This document shows positions 7,623-59,145 of a DNA stretch of 64,000 bases, in pieces. Within the stretch, counting starts at the first letter, position 1. Each line of letters opens with the position of its first letter. The notes under the pieces were generated by a model. That model was not told the origin of the DNA, did not search any database, and saw nothing but the letters and a program-made list of their open reading frames with translations. The DNA lies in the NCBI GenBank assembly GCA_963664115.2, contig CAXWPJ010000010.1:192001-256000 (forward strand). The letters are read 5' to 3'. The translations under genes were made by a program, and so were the position numbers. Origin of the DNA: Terriglobia bacterium (lineage in GTDB: Bacteria > Acidobacteriota > Terriglobia > 20CM-2-55-15).

Positions 7623-8935
<1,313 letters not shown>

Positions 8936-9890: not shown

Positions 9891-10106
9891 ATGCCAAAAA
9901 ACCCGTACAAACCCAAACATCAGGTGAAAGCTCGGATGATTCCCATTCGTGTATCTCAGGAAGATTCTGAGTGGCTGGAAGAGGCATCCAAGAAGTTTGG
10001 AGTGCCGATCAGCCATCTGATGCGGGAAGGTGCGCGGTCATACGTCAAGCGGCTGGAGCGGAAAGGCGAGCCAACAAGAAAGGAGAGTAAATATGGCTCG
10101 TCGTAA
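9891..10106 (+). CDS. Small ribbon-helix-helix-like protein
   Basis: IPIRVSQEDSEWLEEASKKFGVPISHLMRE pattern. Overlaps the integrase start. Confidence 0.55.
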   Translation: MPKNPYKPKHQVKARMIPIRVSQEDSEWLEEASKKFGVPISHLMREGARSYVKRLERKGEPTRKESKYGSS

Positions 10107-11283
10107 ATCGTATCAGAAGGGTTCGGTCAGACGGATTGAGTATCAGTACGGCAAGGTATTCGTCGGCAGGTATAGAGAGCGGCTCCCCGGAGGGGGTTGG
10201 CGAGAGAAAAGCATCACGCTCAGAGACTGCAAGACGAAGAAGGCCGCGCAGCGGAAACTCGACGATATTCTGGACGAACTGAATAAATCAAACGGTGTCG
10301 TTATCGGTGGTGATGTGCTGTTCGCACACGTTCTGGATCGGCTTTGGCCGAACTATCTGGACACGAACAGCATCAAGCTTTCGACACGGCACTCCTATGA
10401 CGTGATGGTTAGCAAGTGGATTGGACCGTATTTTAGGGAAGTGTTGTTGGAAGACGTAACTCCGACCAAGGCTGGTGACTTTATGGCCATGCTCAACGCC
10501 GAGGATTTGTCGCCGCAGTACCGGTTGAACATCTATAGCTTGCTGCGTGTATTGTTCGACCTTGCTGTTGAGTACGACCTTATCGAAGTCAGCCCAATCC
10601 GTCCTAAGGTGCATCGTCCTCAGGTGGTATGGACCGAGAAGCCCTTGTTCTCGGTTGAAGAGGCCACTGCCGTCATCAACGCAGTGCCTTCCGGTTTCCA
10701 TGCCGCTATCGCTACGTTGGCTGTGACAGGGCTACGTGCGGGTGAGCTGGTCGCGCTTAGGTGGGAAGATATCGACTTTCTAGACCAGACGATCAACGTG
10801 AAAGCGTCTGTCTGGAGAGGTCAGATTCAAACCACTAAGACCAGATCAAGCAATGCGGTTCTGTCCATCCCGAGTCAGTTGGTAGGGATTCTTCAAGAGC
10901 ACAAAAGCAGTTCTCGTTTCATCGATTCAGATGACTTCGTGTTCTGCGAAGATGACGGTCGGCCACTCAACCCAGACAAACTGCGAAAGCGTGCAATCTA
11001 TCCAGCGTTAACGAAGCTGGGGATACCTCGCCATTCGCGTGCGTCGGGTTGTCATGCGTTTCGACACCTAGCTGGATCGGTGGCACACCGGGAAACTGGT
11101 TCTGTGAAACTTGCTCAGCAGTTGTTGCGACACTCAAGTGTTGCGACTACGAGCAACATTTACGTTCATACCGACCAAAAGGACATGGAAGGTGTGGCGG
11201 ACTTGCTAGGAAAGGTGTTGCTTGAAAAACCTGTGGCAGGAACGGTGGCAGAAACAGTGCCCGGAAGCGAAACCATCCAATGA
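10093..11283 (+). CDS. Phage-type tyrosine recombinase/integrase
   Basis: TGLRAGELVALRWEDID, TTKT, HAFRH and LLRHSSVATTSNIYVH. RBS aggag. Confidence 0.92.
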   Translation: MARRKSYQKGSVRRIEYQYGKVFVGRYRERLPGGGWREKSITLRDCKTKKAAQRKLDDILDELNKSNGVVIGGDVLFAHVLDRLWPNYLDTNSIKLSTRHSYDVMVSKWIGPYFREVLLEDVTPTKAGDFMAMLNAEDLSPQYRLNIYSLLRVLFDLAVEYDLIEVSPIRPKVHRPQVVWTEKPLFSVEEATAVINAVPSGFHAAIATLAVTGLRAGELVALRWEDIDFLDQTINVKASVWRGQIQTTKTRSSNAVLSIPSQLVGILQEHKSSSRFIDSDDFVFCEDDGRPLNPDKLRKRAIYPALTKLGIPRHSRASGCHAFRHLAGSVAHRETGSVKLAQQLLRHSSVATTSNIYVHTDQKDMEGVADLLGKVLLEKPVAGTVAETVPGSETIQ

Positions 11284-14488: not shown

Positions 14489-15873
14489 GAGTTATTGTCA
14501 AAAGTGGTGTTTAGGAGATTGATTCAAGCGGCGGCCTGATCGACTTGTGTCGCTTCGACACCATCGTTGAATTTCACTCCGATGATTACCTTGCTCAGAT
14601 CATCGAATCCTCGTAATCGTCGCCAATTGTTCTCAGCGCACTGGCCCAGTTTGAACATCATGTGCAGCATGCCATCCCGTGTCAGGCAACCTCTGGATCG
14701 CTTCGTTCGGTGTCGAATGGTGGCAAAGGTCGACTCAATGGGATTCGTCGTTCTGATGCTCTGCCAGTGCTTGGCCGGAAAGTCGTAAAAGGCCAGCAGT
14801 TCCTCTCTGTCTTTCTGCAGGCAGAGTGTGGCTTTCGGATACTTCGGTTCATAGGTTTCAATGAACAAGTCGAATGCCTTCTCGGCGTCTGCCTTCGTCT
14901 CGGCCTGCCAGATCGAGTGCAGGGCCTGTTTCGCCTTCGCCTGGACCGACTTGGGCAGGCAGTTGAGGACGTTCATGACTTTGTGCATCCAGCAACGTTG
15001 TTGACGTGTCTCGGGATAGATTTCCTCCAGTGCGGCCCAGAACCCCATCGCACCGTCACCGATGGCCAACTTCGGAACATTCATCCCACGGGACTTCAGC
15101 TTCAACAAGACCTCGCGCCAACTCTGTGTCGATTCCCGTACACCGTCTTCGATCGCCAGGAAACGCTTCTCTCCGCGTTCATTCACGCCGATCACGACCA
15201 ATGCACACAACTTGGTTTGTTCCGCCCGAAGTCCGCTGTAGATGCCGTCGGCCCAGACATAGACCCAGCGATCTGCATCCAAACGCTCCTCGCATCCGAG
15301 GCGGTACTGTTCGCCCCAAACCTGTTTCAACCGCGATACCGTGCTCGCCGACAGACCCTGCGCCTGGGGACCGACAAGAACTTTTAGGGCCTCACCCATC
15401 TCGCCGCTGGAAACGCCTTTCAAATACAACCACGGCACCGCTGCTTCCAGCGACTTCGTCTTCCGAATGTACGGTGGTACCAGGGCCGATCGGAACGTCA
15501 CAGCTTCGCCCGTCTTGGCACGGACCTTCGGGATTTGGACTGTTACCGGACCCAATCCCGTCTGCAGTTCGCGTTCCGGCAGATAACCGTTGCGTACCAC
15601 CCCGGCGTTTCCTGTCTCAGTTCGCCGGCCACCGTGCTGGGATAGCAGCTCTGCCAATTCGGCTTCCACTGCGCGTTGGATCAGTTGCTGTGCCCCAACT
15701 CGTAGTAGTTCTGTTACTGGATCCTCAATCGTTTCTCGACCTTCCGGTCCATTCACGTTACTCTTGCTCACAGTGGCGTATCTCCTATGGTTGCTTTGAA
15801 GTTTTGTCACAACAAATCAACCAGATACGCCGCTCTTATTCAATCCCTCAAACACCAGATTCGGTTATAACTC
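14489..15873 (-). mobile_element. IS256-family element, copy 1
   Basis: 428-aa Mutator-type transposase. Inverted repeats gagttataaccgaatctggtgttt / aaacaccacttttgacaataactc. Confidence 0.95.
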
Positions 15874-15900
15874 GTTCGCCTCTCCATGAAGACAAGACGG

Positions 15901-18241: not shown

Positions 18242-18334
18242 GACTGAGCAGCCTAGAACCAACGGTCCCAGAGGACCACGGTCTCACATGACCGTATTTT
18301 GCTTGATCTGCTAGTAAGCCTGCGCGACGAGTAC

Positions 18335-19719
18335 GAGTTATAACCGAATCTGGTGTTTGAGGGATTGAATAAGAGCGGCGTATCTGGTTGATTTGTTGTG
18401 ACAAAACTTCAAAGCAACCATAGGAGATACGCCACTGTGAGCAAGAGTAACGTGAATGGACCGGAAGGTCGAGAAACGATTGAGGATCCAGTAACAGAAC
18501 TACTACGAGTTGGGGCACAGCAACTGATCCAACGCGCAGTGGAAGCCGAATTGGCAGAGCTGCTATCCCAGCACGGTGGCCGGCGAACTGAGACAGGAAA
18601 CGCCGGGGTGGTACGCAACGGTTATCTGCCGGAACGCGAACTGCAGACGGGATTGGGTCCGGTAACAGTCCAAATCCCGAAGGTCCGTGCCAAGACGGGC
18701 GAAGCTGTGACGTTCCGATCGGCCCTGGTACCACCGTACATTCGGAAGACGAAGTCGCTGGAAGCAGCGGTGCCGTGGTTGTATTTGAAAGGCGTTTCCA
18801 GCGGCGAGATGGGTGAGGCCCTAAAAGTTCTTGTCGGTCCCCAGGCGCAGGGTCTGTCGGCGAGCACGGTATCGCGGTTGAAACAGGTTTGGGGCGAACA
18901 GTACCGCCTCGGATGCGAGGAGCGTTTGGATGCAGATCGCTGGGTCTATGTCTGGGCCGACGGCATCTACAGCGGACTTCGGGCGGAACAAACCAAGTTG
19001 TGTGCATTGGTCGTGATCGGCGTGAATGAACGCGGAGAGAAGCGTTTCCTGGCGATCGAAGACGGTGTACGGGAATCGACACAGAGTTGGCGCGAGGTCT
19101 TGTTGAAGCTGAAGTCCCGTGGGATGAATGTTCCGAAGTTGGCCATCGGTGACGGTGCGATGGGGTTCTGGGCCGCACTGGAGGAAATCTATCCCGAGAC
19201 ACGTCAACAACGTTGCTGGATGCACAAAGTCATGAACGTCCTCAACTGCCTGCCCAAGTCGGTCCAGGCGAAGGCGAAACAGGCCCTGCACTCGATCTGG
19301 CAGGCCGAGACGAAGGCAGACGCCGAGAAGGCATTCGACTTGTTCATTGAAACCTATGAACCGAAGTATCCGAAAGCCACACTCTGCCTGCAGAAAGACA
19401 GAGAGGAACTGCTGGCCTTTTACGACTTTCCGGCCAAGCACTGGCAGAGCATCAGAACGACGAATCCCATTGAGTCGACCTTTGCCACCATTCGACACCG
19501 AACGAAGCGATCCAGAGGTTGCCTGACACGGGATGGCATGCTGCACATGATGTTCAAACTGGGCCAGTGCGCTGAGAACAATTGGCGACGATTACGAGGA
19601 TTCGATGATCTGAGCAAGGTAATCATCGGAGTGAAATTCAACGATGGTGTCGAAGCGACACAAGTCGATCAGGCCGCCGCTTGAATCAATCTCCTAAACA
19701 CCACTTTTGACAATAACTC
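18335..19719 (+). mobile_element. IS256-family element, copy 2
   Basis: Same transposase and inverted repeats as copy 1, in the opposite orientation. Confidence 0.95.
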
Positions 19720-22827: not shown

Positions 22828-24750
22828 ATGAAGTCGATGACGCGAACCGAATTTGAATCGATTGTGAGTGAACACCAGGCCATGGTCTACAGCATCGCTT
22901 ACAATTTTTCCGGTGATGCCTCTGCGGCCGAGGAAATTGCACAAGAGGTGTTTCTACAATTGTTCAAAGTCAGCGACCAACTCGGGACACTGGCACACGT
23001 GAAACACTGGCTTCGCCGTACTACGACCCACCGGTCGATTGACCAACTTCGGCGGAAGGGCCGTCGTGGCGAGGTGCCGATGGACGCCCTTCCCGAAATA
23101 TCGGCGCCCAACCGTGAACGCGACCCCCTGATCACCCAAAGGCTCCAGCGATTGGTTCGTGCGTTGCCCGAGAAGCCGAGGGCCGTCGTTCTTCTTCGTT
23201 ACGGTGAAGATATGGATGTGGGAGAGATCGGAGAGATTCTGGAGATGCCTGTAGCGACAGTAGAGTTATAACCGAATCTGGTGTTTGAGGGATTGAATAA
23301 GAGCGGCGTATCTGGTTGATTTGTTGTGACAAAACTTCAAAGCAACCATAGGAGATACGCCACTGTGAGCAAGAGTAACGTGAATGGACCGGAAGGTCGA
23401 GAAACGATTGAGGATCCAGTAACAGAACTACTACGAGTTGGGGCACAGCAACTGATCCAACGCGCAGTGGAAGCCGAATTGGCAGAGCTGCTATCCCAGC
23501 ACGGTGGCCGGCGAACTGAGACAGGAAACGCCGGGGTGGTACGCAACGGTTATCTGCCGGAACGCGAACTGCAGACGGGATTGGGTCCGGTAACAGTCCA
23601 AATCCCGAAGGTCCGTGCCAAGACGGGCGAAGCTGTGACGTTCCGATCGGCCCTGGTACCACCGTACATTCGGAAGACGAAGTCGCTGGAAGCAGCGGTG
23701 CCGTGGTTGTATTTGAAAGGCGTTTCCAGCGGCGAGATGGGTGAGGCCCTAAAAGTTCTTGTCGGTCCCCAGGCGCAGGGTCTGTCGGCGAGCACGGTAT
23801 CGCGGTTGAAACAGGTTTGGGGCGAACAGTACCGCCTCGGATGCGAGGAGCGTTTGGATGCAGATCGCTGGGTCTATGTCTGGGCCGACGGCATCTACAG
23901 CGGACTTCGGGCGGAACAAACCAAGTTGTGTGCATTGGTCGTGATCGGCGTGAATGAACGCGGAGAGAAGCGTTTCCTGGCGATCGAAGACGGTGTACGG
24001 GAATCGACACAGAGTTGGCGCGAGGTCTTGTTGAAGCTGAAGTCCCGTGGGATGAATGTTCCGAAGTTGGCCATCGGTGACGGTGCGATGGGGTTCTGGG
24101 CCGCACTGGAGGAAATCTATCCCGAGACACGTCAACAACGTTGCTGGATGCACAAAGTCATGAACGTCCTCAACTGCCTGCCCAAGTCGGTCCAGGCGAA
24201 GGCGAAACAGGCCCTGCACTCGATCTGGCAGGCCGAGACGAAGGCAGACGCCGAGAAGGCATTCGACTTGTTCATTGAAACCTATGAACCGAAGTATCCG
24301 AAAGCCACACTCTGCCTGCAGAAAGACAGAGAGGAACTGCTGGCCTTTTACGACTTTCCGGCCAAGCACTGGCAGAGCATCAGAACGACGAATCCCATTG
24401 AGTCGACCTTTGCCACCATTCGACACCGAACGAAGCGATCCAGAGGTTGCCTGACACGGGATGGCATGCTGCACATGATGTTCAAACTGGGCCAGTGCGC
24501 TGAGAACAATTGGCGACGATTACGAGGATTCGATGATCTGAGCAAGGTAATCATCGGAGTGAAATTCAACGATGGTGTCGAAGCGACACAAGTCGATCAG
24601 GCCGCCGCTTGAATCAATCTCCTAAACACCACTTTTGACAATAACTCGCGACAGTATGGAGCCATCTCAAGCGCAGCATTGCGATGCTGCGAGACAAATT
24701 CAGCCTCGACACGGAGGAGAAACATGAACGAGTTCGAACGGAATCTTCGT
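22828..24750 (+). pseudogene. ECF sigma factor interrupted by IS256
   Basis: AEEIAQEVFLQ...EMPVATV continues in frame as WSHLKRSIAMLR after the IS. Confidence 0.85.
23263..24647 (+). mobile_element. IS256-family element, copy 3, with a 9-bp target duplication
   Basis: gcgacagta flanks both ends (23254-23262 and 24648-24656). Confidence 0.95.
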
Positions 24751-42564: not shown

Positions 42565-42646
42565 GTTTAAAGTGTGTCGCCAAAAGTAGTGGCGAAATTC
42601 TGGTAAGTCTATCTAGGTGGGAGGGTTATTGGCTATTAAATTCTCA

Positions 42647-42674
42647 AGTCCTGAGAAACGACATTCTCGGACGT
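42647..42674 (-). repeat. Inverted partner site B4 (intact)
   Basis: agtcctgagaa-acgaca-ttctcggacgt inside ttctca...tgagaa. Confidence 0.85.
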
Positions 42675-42726
42675 TGAGAAACCCCAGCAATTTACCCAAT
42701 TCTCAAGGTCCGAGAAGATGATTTAT

Positions 42727-44184
42727 TGATGGTATGGACTCCTCTTTGATGACTGAGTCGGCATCGAAGTGCCAAAGTCATTTTGAGCCTCGCAATAAAG
42801 CGGGCGAAACACGTGTACGTGTGAACAAAAAGGAGTCCGAGATGAAGAATAGAACGATAGCAGTGGATCTGGCAAAGAATGTTTTTCAAATTGGTGTTTC
42901 AGATCGCCCCGGGCATGTAGAGAAAACCTATCGTTTAAGTCGGGCAAAGTTTCTGGGGTTCTTTGCGAACCAGGAGCTGGCGACCGTGGTGATGGAAGCC
43001 TGCGGATCCGCCCATTACTGGGGTCGGAAGATCCGGGAACTGGGACACACGGTCGTTCTGATCTCGCCGCAGTATGTGACGCCCTACGTCAGGCGCAACA
43101 AGACCGACCGTACGGATGTGAAAGGATTGTTGGAAGCCTATCGTGACAGCGATATTCATCCAGTGCCGGTCAAAACCCTGGCCCAACAGCAACTGACCTC
43201 ATTGCATCGAATCCGTTCGGCGTGGATGCGAACCCGAACCGCACGGATCAATACGGTGCGGGGGTTGTTACGGGAGTTTGGCTACGTGATCCCGACCGGA
43301 GCGGATCATCTGGTGCCGGGGGTAATGGAGCTGATCGAAGATGCAGATGTCGTCATCCCCAGTGTCGTTCGGGAGATGTTTCACCAGGTGTGTGGCGAGA
43401 TCCGTGAATTGGAATCTCGCATGCGATCGGTGGAACAAGAGTTGAAGACGCTGGCTCGGCAGATGCCTGAGGTCGCGCGTCTGACGTCGATTCCCGGCAT
43501 CGGCCTGTTAACGGCAACGGCAATGGTGGGGTTTGTTGGAAACATCAAACGATTCCGAACGTCCCGCCATTTTGCCAGTTATCTGGGACTCACACCCCGG
43601 GAACATTCCAGTGGCAACCAGCGACGCATGGGCCGGATCAGTAAGCAAGGCGATCGTTACCTCCGGATGCTGTTGGTTCATGGGGGCCGTTCCCTGTTGT
43701 GGAGTGCCCATCGAGAGGGCGCCACACCGACACCTCTCCAGCAATGGGGTCTCCAGAAACACGAGTTCCGCGGACACAACAAGGCAATCGTTGCACTGGC
43801 CAACAAGTTGGCGCGTCGCGTGTGGGCGGTTTGGAACCGTGACTGTGACCATCAGGCCCGGTATCAGGCGGCCTGACCCGGAACAGTCGGAATATCTTTT
43901 CAGCGAGCTGCGATGAGGTTCGAGATGATGGCGTACCGGTCAGACCGGCGCGGGGCAACGCCGACAAGTCCTTTGGCCCTTAGAGGCCGTTATTTTATCG
44001 GTTGGCTCCCCGCGCGCAAATTTCCATCATGGCCTGGAACAATACAGTTCCACTTTTGAGGCCGAAGATACGGGTGCAGTCGACTAGCTACTCACCTCGT
44101 AACTTCTAGTCAGTCCTGCTGAATGCATTTTGCCGAAGAAAGCTGACGGGAGAGCTGCGCCTACTTGACAGAGGAGTCCAGATA
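42727..44184 (+). mobile_element. IS110-family, IS1111-type element (transposase 42842-43876)
   Basis: DEDD motifs (AVDLAK, VVMEACG, KTDRTD) and SSG motif. Sub-terminal inverted repeats tggactcctct / agaggagtcca. No target duplication. About 300-bp downstream non-coding region. Confidence 0.93.
43880..44170 (+). ncRNA. Putative bridge/seek guide RNA of the IS1111-type element
   Basis: Non-coding region with stems flanked by short matches to the target site and to the donor junction. Boundaries are approximate. Confidence 0.65.
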
Positions 44185-44206
44185 CAGGACTTGACCGGCG
44201 AAAGCG

Positions 44207-44695
44207 TCAAGAGCCTCGAACCTTGAAGATGAAATATGTGATCTGTTCCCCCGGCCCTACGATCACGGGATGTGGTGTTCCGGCCGGGACCTGCACGATG
44301 TCGCCCTCGGCGATCCGCTGCACTGTTCCACCCTCAATCGTCGCGCCGCGTACTTCGCCGGGTGTGGTCTCGGTGGGATTCGGGATCGTGCCGCCGAGGA
44401 CCATCGAGGCGTTGCCGAAAAAAATGACGTAGAGATCCGACCAATCAGCATGAGATTCTGAGAAACCGGGGCCGGGCTCAAGATGTGCGACGGCCGCGAA
44501 GTAGTGCTCATAGTCAATGATGCGGTCGGTCACTCCACGGTTGTTAGCGCCTATCTGCCCTGCGAGCTCTCGGTCGATACTGTCCAACTGGAAGGCACTC
44601 CAATAGTTGTAATCGGCTAGTTCCTGAGCTGAAAGCGTCGGGGTGGTGAGCAGGAGTGCTGTGATCAGTAAGGTCAAACGGCCGCGAGTGTGCAC
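44207..44695 (-). CDS. Exported cupin-domain protein
   Basis: SESHADWSDLY and GDIVQVPAGTPH. Confidence 0.75.
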   Translation of the reverse strand: MHTRGRLTLLITALLLTTPTLSAQELADYNYWSAFQLDSIDRELAGQIGANNRGVTDRIIDYEHYFAAVAHLEPGPGFSESHADWSDLYVIFFGNASMVLGGTIPNPTETTPGEVRGATIEGGTVQRIAEGDIVQVPAGTPHPVIVGPGEQITYFIFKVRGS

Positions 44696-45069: not shown

Positions 45070-46918
45070 TCCCAAAACAAGCGCATAACCAGTCCGCCGA
45101 GGCCCAGTTCGCGCCGATAGAATTCGAGGCATAGAATCCCGTTCCCGGATGGCCTGTTCCAGGTATCGAGTTTCTGTTGAATCTGTTTCAGTTCAGCCTC
45201 GCTGGTGTTGGACGGTTGACAGAAACCGGGACCTCGATCGCCCGGGCTCAGAGTCATGATCGGGTCAACATCGCAGAGGCTGACGCAACACATCCACCCC
45301 GCGGAACAAGACCGGCAACCACCGGTTCCAGGCCAGGATCCGGAACAGAATGCGCCGCCCGGTGCGCACGAGTTGGCACGGCACAAGCATGAAAGCGTTC
45401 AAGAAGGTTTTGAACTCCATGCGCAGCACGGTTTGCTTCTCAGCCTGATATTTTTGGCCCCAACGTCCGGTTTCGGGAAGCAGCAATGCAAACCACGCTT
45501 TCAGTGTCCAGGCCAGTGACGCGATCACCATGTAGGCCCAGTTGCTGGTCTGATCTCCGACCGGCATCCGCAACGCCTGAACGCCGTTCTTCAACTGCTC
45601 AATGAGATTCTCCTGATTGCACCGTTGATTGGCACGCATCACAATCTGGTCGGCCGGATCCGAACGGTTGGTAATGTAGAAGAAGTACCGGATGTCGTCA
45701 AACAACACCTGCTCTCCTTTGGCCACCGACAGATTCTTCCGCACCACGACGACACGGTAGTCCCGATCGCAGGCTCCGGGTCGATACCGAAACTCGGCCA
45801 CATCCTCACCCTGCAAGCGGATATTGTCGAAACCGCGCTGCCGAACGATCTCTTCCTTCACGTTGTCGGGACGTTGGCGCGGTTCGGTCGCCACGTCGTA
45901 TTTCGCGGGCCGTTCCAGGCGCTTCCACTGGCGCGGCTCCAGTTCATCGGCCCGGGCCTTCAGGTTCGCCATCGCGTCAATCCCGAATATGAAACCCACC
46001 TGCTGGTCGTCCCATCCGTCCAGATGCCGGGTCTGGCTGAAGTCCGTGTCCCCGCGCAGCAGGATCTGGCGAAACCCCGCATGCCGGCACAATGCGATGG
46101 CTTGGTCGAACCGGACCGCGGCTCCTTCATGCGACGGCCGGTTGCCGCTACGATTGACCAGATACAGCGGTTCGGCGGTGTTGGCCAGCGAGATCATCAG
46201 CGGGTGATATCCCCACGTCCCGTCGTAGGCCACGTCCATCCCTTGCTTGCATTCCCCCGTGGTTTCGGCCAGTGTCCCGTCCGCGTCCAACACCGCTTCT
46301 TCGAAAAACGCCGCCGGTTGCTGTCGCCAGACTCCGAGCCGGACTTGATTGGTTGCCTCCATCAGACACTCCACGTCGTCGGCCTCGAATCTCCGGCAGA
46401 AGTCTCCCGCCGTCGTCGGATCCGGAATCCGTTGCGCTCCCAGCGCATCCAGATACACCGCATCGTTGCGCCGCAGTTCGATGTCTTCCAGGCACGTTCC
46501 TCCGCTCAAGGCGTTGTAGGCGATGTTCAGCACGTGATCCGACTCGTGATACGGCAGGTGCCGCTTCAACACATGCACGCCCTTGTCGATGGCTTCGATC
46601 AGCCCGGTCCGCCGCGCCACCAGTTGCATCGTCCCGATACCACCAACCGATGTGCCCCGCGTCCGCTCTCCCATCTCGTACTGAATGTTGCTCGCCGAAA
46701 ACATCGGCTCTACCTGATCCGTCCAATGCCGGTCCCCAAGCCGACGTTCGATTCGCCGCTTGCGGTTCCTCATGTTCTTGCGCGTATAATCGTTCATCTG
46801 AAATGCCTCCTTTTCCGAAGAATCTGTTCAAGGTTTTTTTCGCACGGAGAGGGGGCATTTCGGGTACTTCCGCTCTTATTGCACTATCATTTCCTCGTCA
46901 ATCACGCTTGTTCAGGGA
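45070..46918 (-). mobile_element. IS1380-family element (transposase 45265-46797)
   Basis: Motifs PDPTTAGDF, LDADGT, GYHPL, LLRGDTDF and QENLIEQLK. Inverted repeats tcccaaaacaagcg / cgcttgttcaggga, flanked by CTAG. Confidence 0.85.
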
Positions 46919-47180: not shown

Positions 47181-48337
47181 CTAGTGGTCCCCGTTAAACA
47201 GACTGTAACTTATCAAGATTTCGCCGGCCGCGCTGGACTTTAGCAAGGATGTCGGAAGCCGTTGCAGTCCAGATGAAGGGTTTCGGGTCTTCATTGTGAC
47301 GAGCGAGGTAGTCCTCCACGGCCTGGATCAACTCGGGGACCGAGCGGAAAACGCCACGCCGGAGTCGTTGCTCGGACAGATCCCGGAAAAAGCGCTCGAC
47401 CATGTTGAGCCACGACGCACTGGTTGGCGTGAAGTGCACATGAAAACGCTTGTTACGCTTGAGCCAGTTGACGACTTTCTGATGTTTGTGAGTCGCATAG
47501 TTGTCGCAAATAATGTGGATCTCCTTATCTTTCGGCATGGCGCGTTTGATCTGATTCAGAAACCGGATCCATTCCTGATGGCGATGCTTTGGCATGCAGG
47601 TTCCGATGACCGAACCGTCCAGGATGTTGAGCGCGGCGAAAAGCGTGGTTGTCCCGTTACGTTTGTAATCGTGGGTCATGGTGCCACACCGCCCCTTCTT
47701 CAGAGGTAACCCGGGTTGCGTGCGGTCCAGGGCCTGCATCTGGCTCTTCTCATCGCAGGACAAGACAATGGCGTTTTCCGGTGGGCTCAGATACAGACCG
47801 ACCACATCCTCCAGCTTTTCGGCGAATCGTTTGTCGTTGGATAGTTTGAAGGTTCGTGACAGATGAGGCTTCAGTCCATGGACCCGCCAGATTTTCCCGA
47901 CCGTGGACTCGCTCACGCCAACGGCCTTCGCCATCGAGGCCCGACTCCAGTGCGTCGCGTTCGGGGGCTTCTCTTCCAGTGTCTTCTTGACGATCCGGGC
48001 TCGCTTCCGGCGACTGATCGTGGGAATCCGTCCGCTTCGCGGCGCATCCTTTTCGATCCCAGCCAAGCCCTGTTCCACAAAACGATTGCGCCAGCGGCCC
48101 GCTTTCTGGCGCGTGATCTCCAAGCGGGCGGCGATCTCATAATTGTTCCGACCTTCAGCGGCCAGTAATACAATTCGGGATCGTTCCGCCAACCGGACCG
48201 ATGTACTCCGGCTTCGACTCAGTCGCTCCGACTCCATCCGCTGCTTGTCATCCAATTCAATGGTCGGTGCTTTCCTCATTCTCTATTGGACGTTGGAAAG
48301 CTATTTTAGTTACATTACTTCGAGCGGGGTACACTAG
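47181..48337 (-). mobile_element. IS630-family element, intact transposase 47194-48279
   Basis: 361-aa DDE transposase related to the copy at 12 kb. CTAG at both ends. Confidence 0.93.
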
Positions 48338-56475: not shown

Positions 56476-59145
56476 TCAAGGCACCGGCACCCGTTCCTTC
56501 AGTTCTTCAAACCAGTTTAGGACCACGATGATCTCGCCCCCGCGTGAGTCGTTCTCTGATTCGCGAATCATGAGAAAACGTTCGCCATCCGGCGCGATGT
56601 CGTAAGTGTGGGAACGGAATCCAGAGGATCGCAGGTAAGGACCGGAGAACAGCTCTCTCTGCTGCGTTGCCACGAAGGCCGGAGTCGTCTCGACCGAGGC
56701 CGCCATCACTCTACTCCCTTGGCGGTAGTAGATTTCAGTTCCGTTGGGGGACCATATAGGTTCTTCTCCTCCCGCTCGGGACACGCGCCATGGCCCTCCA
56801 TCTGCGACGTTAGGAAACGGCCTGACCAAGATCTCTGGTTGGCCTAACTCGTCGGACGAATAGACCATCCAGCGACCGTCTGGGGAGATTTGCGCGTGTC
56901 GTTCTCCCGAATCTGAAGCAAGCAGTGCCTGTGGACTGGGTTCACCAACCAGCGAGAGCTGTCTGAGGTCCGAGTCTGTCTCCGGCCTCACCGCGTATAC
57001 CAGCGTCTCTCCGTCAGGCGAGACAGAGGACAGTATCGGCGGTAATCCGGGAGGAAGTACCGCGATGCTCTCGGCTTGATCCGTGCCGTCCGCACGTCGC
57101 CGAAAAACCGTAAACACCCCCTCCGGGTCGGAAAGGAACACCACGTGTTGCCCATCCGGCGTCCACAACGGCTGCATGTCGGCTGTCGTCACATCGAAGA
57201 TGAATGGCCTTGTTGTTTCTCCCACCACGTCGTGCAGCCACAAATCTTCCCGAGACTCCGGACCCTCAGCAACAAGAGCGACCCTCATCCCATCGGGCGA
57301 AATCTGTACACCGCCGTAGGCGAGTGTCTCGCCTTGAAGAGGCTCTTCACTCCCCGCGCGATCGACCCATACCAACGCCCTTGCGCCGTCACCCATGTCC
57401 GCCGGGATGTAGGTCATCGCTCCGCTCTCAGCGAGGGCGAATTGCACCGCGCCACCGCCCTCTATTCGAACCCCCTCAAGCACCGGAAGTGCATTGCCGG
57501 TAATCTCGAGTCGGGACTCATCGAACGGGACCGCCCACAACGATGCGCCAGTCTGCGCGTAGAGTAGATGACCCGTAGGCGAGTAACGAGGGAAGAAGCC
57601 ATTGCCGAGCACCTTTCTCTCTCCGGTCTGCAGAGACACCACTGCAATCTGGGCCGTGTCCAGCGAACCTGACCAGATCGTGAATAGCACCGCGTCACCA
57701 GCAGGCAGGAACGCGGGCTCGTCGTGATATATCTCACCGGCTTGCAGCCTGGTCAGCTGCTCCGGAGCGCCTCCCGTCAACGATAGCCGCGAGAGTGCGA
57801 GCGTGTTGGAATCTGAAAACACGATCGTCTGATCGGGACCCCAGGTGCTACCAAAGCCACCACATTCGCAGATCGTTGTCGGCGATTCTCCTGCCAAAGA
57901 AACCCTCTTCAGACCGTCGGGACTCCCGAATGCAAGCCACTGGCCATCAGGCGAAAAGAAAGGGAAGTCCGCACCCTCCGAGCCGCGGATCGGTACGGCT
58001 TCAAGTCCGTTTATGGGACGACGGTACAGTTGGTCTCCCTCCTCAGTAAAGGCTCTGTAGACGAGTTCCTGACCGTCGGGAGACAGCGCGAGAAGATGCC
58101 CCACCCTTGGGGGGAGCTCACCACTGACATCGATTGCAAAACGTGCCGCAGTCTGGTTCGACGAAGCTGGTCCTGACGACCAACTGGCGACAACCGCAAT
58201 CAGGAGCGCAACCCCCGTGACAACCCACGGCACTTTCGACTGCGGTGCTGCATGAGCAACCCCACCAACCGACTGCACGAGCACACCGCTCGGGTCCGCC
58301 AGCACTTTCTCGATGTCCGCTTTCACATCACCTATATCCTGGAATCTTGTTGCGGCTTGTTTGTCAAGACACCGTTCCACCACTTCCCGAAGTCGTGGAT
58401 GAAGATTAGGGGGCAGAGTGTCCCACTCCGGCTGCAGGCTGATCACGGCCGAGAGAGACTCCGCCACATCGGACTTACCGAAGGACTGACGGCCTGTGAG
58501 CATTTCATAGAGGACACAGCCGAACGCGAATATGTCCGTGCGTTTGTCAACTGCGCGGCCCTTGGCTTGTTCAGGGCTCATATAGGCGGCGGTGCCGAGG
58601 ATCATTCCTTGCTGCGTAGCCGCCATACTCAGCGTTGGCGAGTTCGATACGCTTGCGTCGACCTCATCACCGGCAAACGCTTTAGCTAACCCAAAGTCGA
58701 GCACTTTCACATTGTCGTCGTCGGTGACTTTGATGTTCAGAGGCTTTAGGTCTCGATGGATGACACCTTTTTCGTGTGCAGCCTTGAGAGCATCGGCGAC
58801 TTGTAGAGCTATTTTGAGCGAGTCCTCAACAGCTATGGCTCCACGGTTTAGGCGATCCGCGAGTGTGTCCCCTTCGACAAGTTCCAAGACGAGGAAGTGC
58901 GTTCCGTTGTGTTCCTCAAATCCGTGGATGGCTGCAATGTTCGGGTGATTCAGAGAGGCCAGTAGCTTCGCTTCACGTTCAAACCGTGCAAGTCGGTCCG
59001 CATCCTTGGCGAACTCTTCGGGCAGCGTCTTGATCGCCACTTCGCGCCCGAGTTTTGTGTCCCGCGCACGCCAAACTTCTCCCATGCCTCCTTTACCCAG
59101 GAGGGTTGAGATCTCGTAGTGGCCGAGTTTGGTGCCAGATTCCAT
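56476..59145 (-). CDS. Hanks-type Ser/Thr protein kinase with a TM segment and PD40/TolB-like beta-propellers
   Basis: GKGGMG, VAIK, HRDLKPLN, DFG and YMSPE. TM segment VPWVVTGVALLIAVVA. SPDG repeats. Ends in VLNWFEELKERVPVP. Confidence 0.95.
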   Translation of the reverse strand: MESGTKLGHYEISTLLGKGGMGEVWRARDTKLGREVAIKTLPEEFAKDADRLARFEREAKLLASLNHPNIAAIHGFEEHNGTHFLVLELVEGDTLADRLNRGAIAVEDSLKIALQVADALKAAHEKGVIHRDLKPLNIKVTDDDNVKVLDFGLAKAFAGDEVDASVSNSPTLSMAATQQGMILGTAAYMSPEQAKGRAVDKRTDIFAFGCVLYEMLTGRQSFGKSDVAESLSAVISLQPEWDTLPPNLHPRLREVVERCLDKQAATRFQDIGDVKADIEKVLADPSGVLVQSVGGVAHAAPQSKVPWVVTGVALLIAVVASWSSGPASSNQTAARFAIDVSGELPPRVGHLLALSPDGQELVYRAFTEEGDQLYRRPINGLEAVPIRGSEGADFPFFSPDGQWLAFGSPDGLKRVSLAGESPTTICECGGFGSTWGPDQTIVFSDSNTLALSRLSLTGGAPEQLTRLQAGEIYHDEPAFLPAGDAVLFTIWSGSLDTAQIAVVSLQTGERKVLGNGFFPRYSPTGHLLYAQTGASLWAVPFDESRLEITGNALPVLEGVRIEGGGAVQFALAESGAMTYIPADMGDGARALVWVDRAGSEEPLQGETLAYGGVQISPDGMRVALVAEGPESREDLWLHDVVGETTRPFIFDVTTADMQPLWTPDGQHVVFLSDPEGVFTVFRRRADGTDQAESIAVLPPGLPPILSSVSPDGETLVYAVRPETDSDLRQLSLVGEPSPQALLASDSGERHAQISPDGRWMVYSSDELGQPEILVRPFPNVADGGPWRVSRAGGEEPIWSPNGTEIYYRQGSRVMAASVETTPAFVATQQRELFSGPYLRSSGFRSHTYDIAPDGERFLMIRESENDSRGGEIIVVLNWFEELKERVPVP

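Follow-up and report, generated by a model that had tools for sequence, protein, structure and literature searches.

An IS1111-type insertion sequence at a fixed position in a multi-copy 40-bp palindrome, with a predicted guide RNA matching both strands of its target

The closest described systems are IS1111-type elements, for which the group criteria used here come from the available part of Siddiquee 2024 (PMC11187229). The same part describes an IS1111-attC group comprising ISKpn4, ISPst6 and ISPa25, and integron attC sites are given as the target of ISKpn4 there and in the accessible target table of PMC13604230. ISKpn4 (46.5%) and ISPa62 (48.0%, counted with the IS1111-attC group by annotation) were the best named matches to the present recombinase in a plasmid collection, and both grouped with the focal clade in a quick tree of 49 proteins (SH-aLRT 99). 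As ISKpn4, among the closest named relatives, targets attC, parasitism of recombination sites is already known for this group. The focal element shares with the group the predicted RNA fold, the guide positions, and a single fixed position and orientation in a repeated site, but differs in its guides, its left end and its target, a 40-bp 17-6-17 palindrome in chromosomal islands. The non-coding region of ISKpn4 scored 78 bits with our RNA model and had target-matching segments at the same positions. As in the focal element, the records of both ISKpn4 and ISPa62 show unlike bases at left-end position +1 and at the start of the right flank. Integron attC sites have a paired core, and the focal target, a 40-bp site without such a core, is not an integron attC. 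The one gene of the genome that is, judging by its motifs, presumably integron-integrase-like lies 196 kb from the nearest repeat.

According to the accessible text of PMC11187229, the seekRNA elements ISEc11 and ISPa11 likewise have subterminal repeats 7 and 3 nt from the ends, a downstream non-coding region, a guide order of top-strand complement followed by bottom-strand match, and natural reprogramming among close relatives. Their targets are a short linear site or a REP, in contrast to the present one, and their RNAs were purified and tested, whereas the focal RNA is predicted. IS621, as described in the available part of Durrant 2024 (PMC11208160), has in common with the focal element the DEDD and serine domains, a target loop and the donor-binding positions; the focal RNA differs in its downstream location and reversed guide order, and the focal element in its long subterminal repeats. 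The same source describes a shared 2-bp core for IS621, whereas the focal clade has no identical donor/target core. IS621 and ISCro4 were the only PDB matches of the recombinase, and these were weak (E ~2e-11). The IS1202 family (ISAjo2 and relatives) resembles the focal element in homing to Xer-type sites, dif or pdif, but has terminal inverted repeats and inserts 5 bp outside the XerC arm, whereas the focal IS lies inside an arm (PMC10132070, in the part available). Our literature search found no IS1111 element in dif-like sites; supplements or ISfinder could list one. To our knowledge, the IS1202-family elements are DDE elements with no known guide RNA.

The IS1111-type insertion sequence occupies positions 42727-44184 (+ strand; 1458 bp) of the window, the whole 64,000-nucleotide stretch analysed here, and relatives have the same ends. 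An earlier sequence-only reading had recognised the element, and its bounds of 42706-44191 are replaced by these exact ones. The insertion shows neither target duplication nor boundary ambiguity, and it splits the site as had been claimed, between GATGAT-TTAT and CAGGACT. The left end (42727-42745, +) consists of a 7-nt extension and a 12-bp subterminal inverted repeat at 42734-42745, and the right end (44165-44184, +) of a -35-like TTGACA at 44165-44170, the partner repeat at 44170-44181 and a 3-nt extension. The two repeats are complementary at 11 of 12 positions and start 7 nt and 3 nt from the ends. Between them, a 344-aa DEDD recombinase is encoded at 42842-43876 (+), with D9, E52, D89 and D92, a GL-P----SG motif containing S257, and Pfam matches to PF01548 and PF02371. 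The downstream non-coding DNA is 308 bp long, against 115 bp upstream of the gene. A putative promoter at the circle junction would combine TTGACA with an imperfect -10, either TGGTAT at 17 bp or TATGAT at 12 bp from it.

The assignment to the IS1111 type, already made from the sequence, was borne out by the two Pfam domains, the DEDD and SG motifs and the subterminal repeats. The protein combines a DEDD RuvC-like domain with a C-terminal PF02371 carrying GL-P----SG and falls within 330-350 aa; the subterminal repeats (11-13 bp, 7/3 nt) and the long downstream non-coding region were found; a single target position and orientation without added bases was seen by comparison with 173 intact sites; and computationally, the RNA segments match both target strands, the top-strand complement coming first.

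The target is a 40-bp palindrome of two 17-bp arms around a 6-bp spacer. At no more than 5 mismatches, 173 intact copies were found in the genome, 130 of them with the spacer GATGAT, and the TTAT variant is present in 36 of the 173. At no more than 2 mismatches the repeat was matched in 9 of 35 genomes of the family, with 131 copies in the own genome and 79, 41, 9, 4, 2, 1, 1 and 1 in the others, while a reversed control gave 0. The left part of the interrupted copy lies at 42700-42726 (+), comprising the 17-bp left arm, the spacer GATGAT (42717-42722) and TTAT of the right arm, and the rest of the right arm lies at 44185-44197 (+). An intact B-type repeat (spacer TGTCGT) is located at 42641-42680 (-), inverted and 19 bp from the interrupted site. 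On the other side, the stretch from the IS right end to the next A site (44736) holds a 162-aa ORF without a Pfam match (44207-44695, -). The chromosomal repeat hit by the IS appears undescribed, and the element itself is ordinary; our literature search found no account of the 40-bp repeat, and supplementary element tables (e.g. those of PMC11208160) or ISfinder could list it.

Nine left ends and 13 right ends of the IS were found in the own genome, and 7 of the 9 and 11 of the 13, respectively, abut one same repeat position, a fixed insertion point in a multi-copy site represented by 173 intact copies. These seven left ends follow a spacer plus TTAT, with six A spacers and one B; the remaining two are an 83% variant at the mirror position on the other strand and one (C3:7811) with no repeat to its left. 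Of the right ends, ten run into C(A/G)GGACTTGA and an eleventh into a degenerate version, while a 74% variant adjoins the opposite arm and a degenerate right end (C7) no site. The expectation that other IS copies would sit at the same position in A or B sites thus held for most, but not for C3:7811 and C7, and two ends occupy the mirror position. TTAT was present at 7/7 forward-position left ends versus 36/173 intact sites (Fisher p=3e-5).

A recombinase homologue (E <=1e-60) was detected in 13 of the 61 genomes searched, and matches outside the own genome (G000) were taken as the relatives' loci. In three congeners, forward-type elements that are 79-93% identical occupy the position used by the focal element. 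A further lineage, found in G002 and 75% identical, is aimed at the other strand of the repeat and has guides that differ from the focal ones; its right flank was the same in 11 of the 11 loci having a right end. Other lineages, 61-78% identical, are inserted at unrelated sequences.

Two segments of the downstream non-coding region correspond to the target. The right target guide (43965-43973, +) complements the top strand on the right-hand side of the insertion point, and the left target guide, TTTAT plus the core base C (43994-43999, +), has the same sense as the target from -5 to +1. The 14-mer defined by these guides was found 32 times in the genome, 22 times in catalogued sites and 10 times in broken ones. 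In close relatives, the 9-10 nt between GCCG and TGGCC track the reverse complement of the right flank, and the 5 nt before a conserved CGG follow the terminal bases of the left flank one by one; the map was drawn from 47 of the 58 loci at >=50% identity, the other 11 having no parsable RNA. The left guide variants TTTAT, TTTCT and TTTAA, in L094, L095 and L083, match their own flanks. Using one element per target class, the right guide matched at 8.0/9 positions versus 4.67 under the null (p=5e-5, 11 classes) and the left guide at 4.0/5 versus 1.58 (p=1e-4, 8 classes; 3.86/5 versus 1.55 without the focal element), and these p values, like the z values below, are overstated because related elements are not independent. 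The right-flank match was only 5/9 in the relative L082.

The same relation was found in distant elements. Applied to two sets of 80 distant loci, the RNA model, built from 19 sequences, found 75 and 65 matches; 113 of these had their ends called, 100 loci were realigned, and 98 elements were kept, which have 37-49% amino acid identity, full ends and flanks, and lay outside model building. Positions 43995-43998 track flank positions -4 to -1 in these 98 elements (z 9.9-12.5), 43999 equals the core base, and six of the eight positions of 43965-43972 complement the right flank between +1 and +8 (z 6.5-9.2). The covariation in close and distant relatives supported the earlier claim on the right target guide (CAAGTCCT) and, together with the consensus fold, the claim that the downstream region encodes a guide RNA programmed for the site.

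We estimate at roughly 90% the probability that this IS1111-type element was placed in the repeat by a predicted, recombinase-bound downstream RNA pairing with both repeat strands. At the level of sequence, four things are observed: a fixed position, ends that directly adjoin the site with no duplication, a conserved fold, and guides that change with the flanks. By analogy with the family, an element sitting, as here, 4 bp into the right arm of the 40-bp repeat would leave or copy itself out as a circle, the circle-junction promoter would drive the recombinase and the RNA, and the RNA-recombinase complex would insert the circle at another site by recombination. With its right guide the RNA would read the top strand from +1 to +9 and with its left guide the bottom strand from -5 to +1, the latter accounting for the use of the TTAT repeat variant, and a second RNA domain would hold the IS ends via 44066-44071 and 44023-44027. 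Exit by cutting or by copying is disputed for IS621 in the available parts of PMC13626964 and bioRxiv 10.64898/2026.08.31.748434. Neither a circle joint nor an empty-site joint at the locus was present in the Logan contigs of 8 of the 23 listed runs, and such contigs drop rare forms. The insertion breaks the arm, and would thus inactivate that site for whatever protein uses the repeat.

It is very unlikely that the recombinase or a host protein instead recognises the palindrome itself, as a hairpin, cruciform or bound protein, with the RNA matches being secondary. In favour of such recognition, the repeat is strongly palindromic, the two IS lineages cut it at mirror positions, and unrelated elements insert in or beside it, hinting at an accessible structure; however, recombinases 75-78% identical go to unrelated targets matched by their own guides, and the choice among TTAT, TTCT and TTAA tracks the left guide base for base in the three relatives carrying the variants named above. 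The palindrome structure may still have a helping role in the insertion.

The covariance check of the non-coding region, which the sequence-only reading had proposed, revealed a conserved fold. The core of the predicted bridge/seek RNA, as distinct from the RNA ends, spans 43916-44082 (+). The consensus fold of 19 sequences contains 38 pairs, 13 of them changed on both sides, and 0 of 500 shuffles were as good; the fold was derived from the alignment that scored it, which favours the fold, and slid controls were far lower. The closing stem P1 is formed by TGATGG (43926-43931, +) and CCATCA (44024-44029), with three of six pairs changed on both sides, and its 5' strand overlaps AGATGAT. Both target guides are opposed in one internal loop, located between GCCGA/TTGGC and an inner hairpin. 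Folded as a single sequence, the whole non-coding region was no better than shuffles (z -0.69), and an Rfam search of this region matched no family. Contigs from RNA runs covered the non-coding region at low depth (one 199-nt contig, 43886-44084), but also covered the gene, and are thus uninformative on a discrete RNA.

All four motifs named in the sequence-only reading are present where it had placed them, although their roles were partly revised. AGATGAT (43923-43929) had been regarded as the left target guide reading the spacer, with a ggcgt/acgcc stem closing the target loop, and this assignment is now hardly credible. The motif is identical to the target at 7/7 positions in the focal element, and permutation tests gave a small excess (p=0.014 with 14 lineages; p=0.008 with 8 classes, at 2.62/7 versus 1.95 with the focal element supplying 7 matches; p=0.043 without the focal element). 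Without the focal element, however, the score was 2.0/7, near chance in absolute terms, and the region gave no diagonal in the 98 distant elements (best z versus the left flank 3.2). AGATGAT is kept in L082 and L083 at other spacers, whereas the GATGAT-spacer relatives L084, L104 and L110 have AATTGAT or ATTTGAT instead. The ggcgt/acgcc complements are present, as is the ccggt/accgg complement, but a closing role for the former was not upheld: 0/10 pairs changed on both sides and 355/500 shuffles were as good, against three of six changed pairs in the rival stem P1. AGATGAT is largely a conserved stem strand, one base off an AGTTGAT that is kept in relatives whatever their target, and its match to the target is, judged from these comparisons, a coincidence; the left guide is the TTTAT-C at 43994-43999.

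The donor side of the RNA was also traced in the distant elements. The left donor guide, AGATA plus the core base C (44066-44071, +), reads in the same sense as the final bases of the IS at its right end; 44067-44069 equal the right end in 98/98, 97/97 and 97/97 elements and 44071 equals the left-end base +1 in 91/97, in agreement with the donor role claimed for AGATA. For CCATCAT, claimed as a 7-nt donor match, only the first four bases, CCAT, were retained, as 44028-44030 did not track the ends. The likely right donor guide lies at 44023-44027 (+), complementary to left-end positions +3 to +7 with a 4/5 match, and also belongs to the 3' strand of P1. Positions 44024-44027 complement left-end +6 to +3 at nearly invariant positions, and 44023 complements +7 in 65 of 98 elements, with 18 further G-U pairs. 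In ISKpn4 and ISPa62 the left end reads CTGTA at +3 to +7 and the RNA UACAG, with the 5' stem strand changed to match; on this co-change, strand 44023-44027 likely doubles as a stem strand and as the right donor guide. For IS1111 RNAs, Durrant et al. predicted donor-binding bases within a multi-loop (PMC11208160, in the part available).

The first left-end base equals the first right-flank base, forming a 1-bp core, in 88 of the 98 distant elements. In the focal clade, an identical donor/target core was found at none of the 39 loci with both ends read, the left-end and right-flank bases being T versus C in 37 and T versus G in 2; a further 12 loci lacked an end. At the left junction the focal IS contributes T, against C in the target and in both guides; from this, strand exchange appears, on sequence grounds, to occur just before the core base.

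A third explanation, that one old insertion spread passively by duplication of site-carrying modules, is scarcely tenable: 16 pairs of segmental duplicates of sites with both flanks do exist, but the flank diversity of the IS copies largely refutes it, since near-identical copies are bordered, past the site, by unrelated DNA on either side and differ in their arm and spacer variants (A and B), and the forward-type elements of the three congeners, 79-93% identical, share the position.

The placement of the element by its predicted RNA remains the preferred reading, and what is new here is an IS1111 member with a new target. Its relatives form a natural reprogramming series in one bacterial family, with recombinases 72-100% identical and about a dozen different guide pairs, each of which fits its own flanks to the level of single bases. 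The IS1111-type RNA is mapped here with four guides, of which the left donor guide agrees with the IS end in 97/97 distant elements; this map is relevant to the question of whether RNAs of the IS1111 group link donor to target or serve solely to find the target. The IS110-type RNA-guided family, of which the focal element is an ordinary member, is now studied for genome editing. Two sister lineages at 75-78% identity (L085-L086, L096-L098, L105, L107, L111-L113, L123-L125, L127 and L129-L131) hit other targets, and the recurring flanks seen in some of them are perhaps further repeats or element ends. Flanks resembling attC ends were seen in the relatives L030, L149 and L169, by comparison with the pattern of the ISKpn4 target.

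The more surprising question is the repeat itself. It had been called dif-like, and the resemblance stands, as 14 of 22 arm positions equal the host dif (8/11 and 6/11 for the inner arms, by eye on the consensus; binomial p ~3e-4 from one alignment). Identity with the chromosomal dif was rejected, because the repeat has 173 copies and a separate, single canonical dif lies on C2 at ~108113-108141, at the GC-skew switch, the only convincing one of two candidates with <=2 mismatches. As far as the accessible descriptions of Acinetobacter pdif modules go, the repeat resembles these in its 6-bp spacer, its dif resemblance (14/22), inverted B and A sites bracketing a gene, and flanks recombined at the repeat; it differs in that the arms extend to 17 bp and are near-symmetric, A neighbours are mostly co-oriented rather than alternating, and there are ~170 chromosomal copies. 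Neighbouring A sites lie on the same strand in 78 of 83 pairs, and A sites lie opposite to a non-A neighbour in 33 of 42.

Among A sites genome-wide, the left flank is common to 61 pairs whose right flanks are unrelated, and the right flank to 1024 pairs whose left flanks are unrelated; sequence identity falls off at the site edges. With about 170 copies and recombined flanks at its edges, the palindromic site is a persistent target that merits study. In a check for crossover inside the spacer, the variable arm positions were linked to neither flank. XerC- and XerD-like proteins were the only close tyrosine-recombinase orthologues (79-92%) in all three repeat-rich genomes, in a survey that covered tyrosine recombinases. 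One further integrase common to these genomes (51-70%) lies far from any site.

That the repeat is a XerCD site is a tentative proposal. The 6/11 match of its XerD-side arm, the symmetric 17-bp arms, the co-oriented neighbours and the arm variants unlinked to flanks all speak against it. It may equally be the site of another site-specific recombinase, itself a doubtful assignment, and an origin as the ends of a non-autonomous transposon or as a REP-like repeat is possible to a similar, limited degree; some reading beyond these is improbable. In one speculative form of the Xer proposal, host XerCD would shuffle modules in an undescribed manner at ~170 degenerate dif-like crossover sites bracketing kinase-derived modules. 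The repeat may then serve as a parasite hub, with two mirror-strand IS1111 programmes and IS91-plus-integrase elements at the spacer edge. If true, the focal IS would be the first RNA-guided element shown homing to Xer-type sites.

Two integrases were considered as the enzyme of the repeat and rejected. One, between two B sites on C5, was not found by this query in G002, G003 and G004, and no full site lay within 1.5 kb of any of the 12 loci holding its homologues in other genomes. The other, linked to IS91, had no close relative among the 12 PF00589 matches of G003, a genome with 41 sites that is 95% complete, so that absence there is no proof.

Other sequences recur at the repeat. An inverted pair of sites encloses an 889-aa Ser/Thr kinase with PD40 repeats at 56476-59145 of the window; a stub of the kinase 3' end comes after 61 of 130 A sites, the region upstream of the kinase after 16 of 24 B sites, and 22 of 31 matches to the kinase N-terminus start within 225 bp of a site. 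Eight of eight integrase genes of one type in G000 (C1:92965, C1:108556, C2:196490, C12:36231, C12:159079, C12:487026, C12:570146 and C3:2990) start in or within ~350 bp of a repeat or broken repeat, and two of these begin right after the spacer plus TT, like both G002 copies (L252, L253). The transposase adjoining these integrases is presumably IS91-like, a label taken from motifs in L216/L218. Two other sequences recur in G000 directly beside broken sites, joining them at the spacer or close to it, one in 3 copies (C2:755275, C10:417483 and C11:30508) and the other in 2 (C12:20181 and C12:564499). Three base pairs of the spacer are missing from four sites. The repeat site seems to be used by further elements as well.

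The window is an IS-rich island. It also contains three identical Mutator/IS256-type copies (14489-15882, 18326-19719 and 23263-24648), an IS3-type element (7623-8935), a phage-type integrase (10030-11283), and two further DDE transposases at 45265-46797 and 47194-48279.
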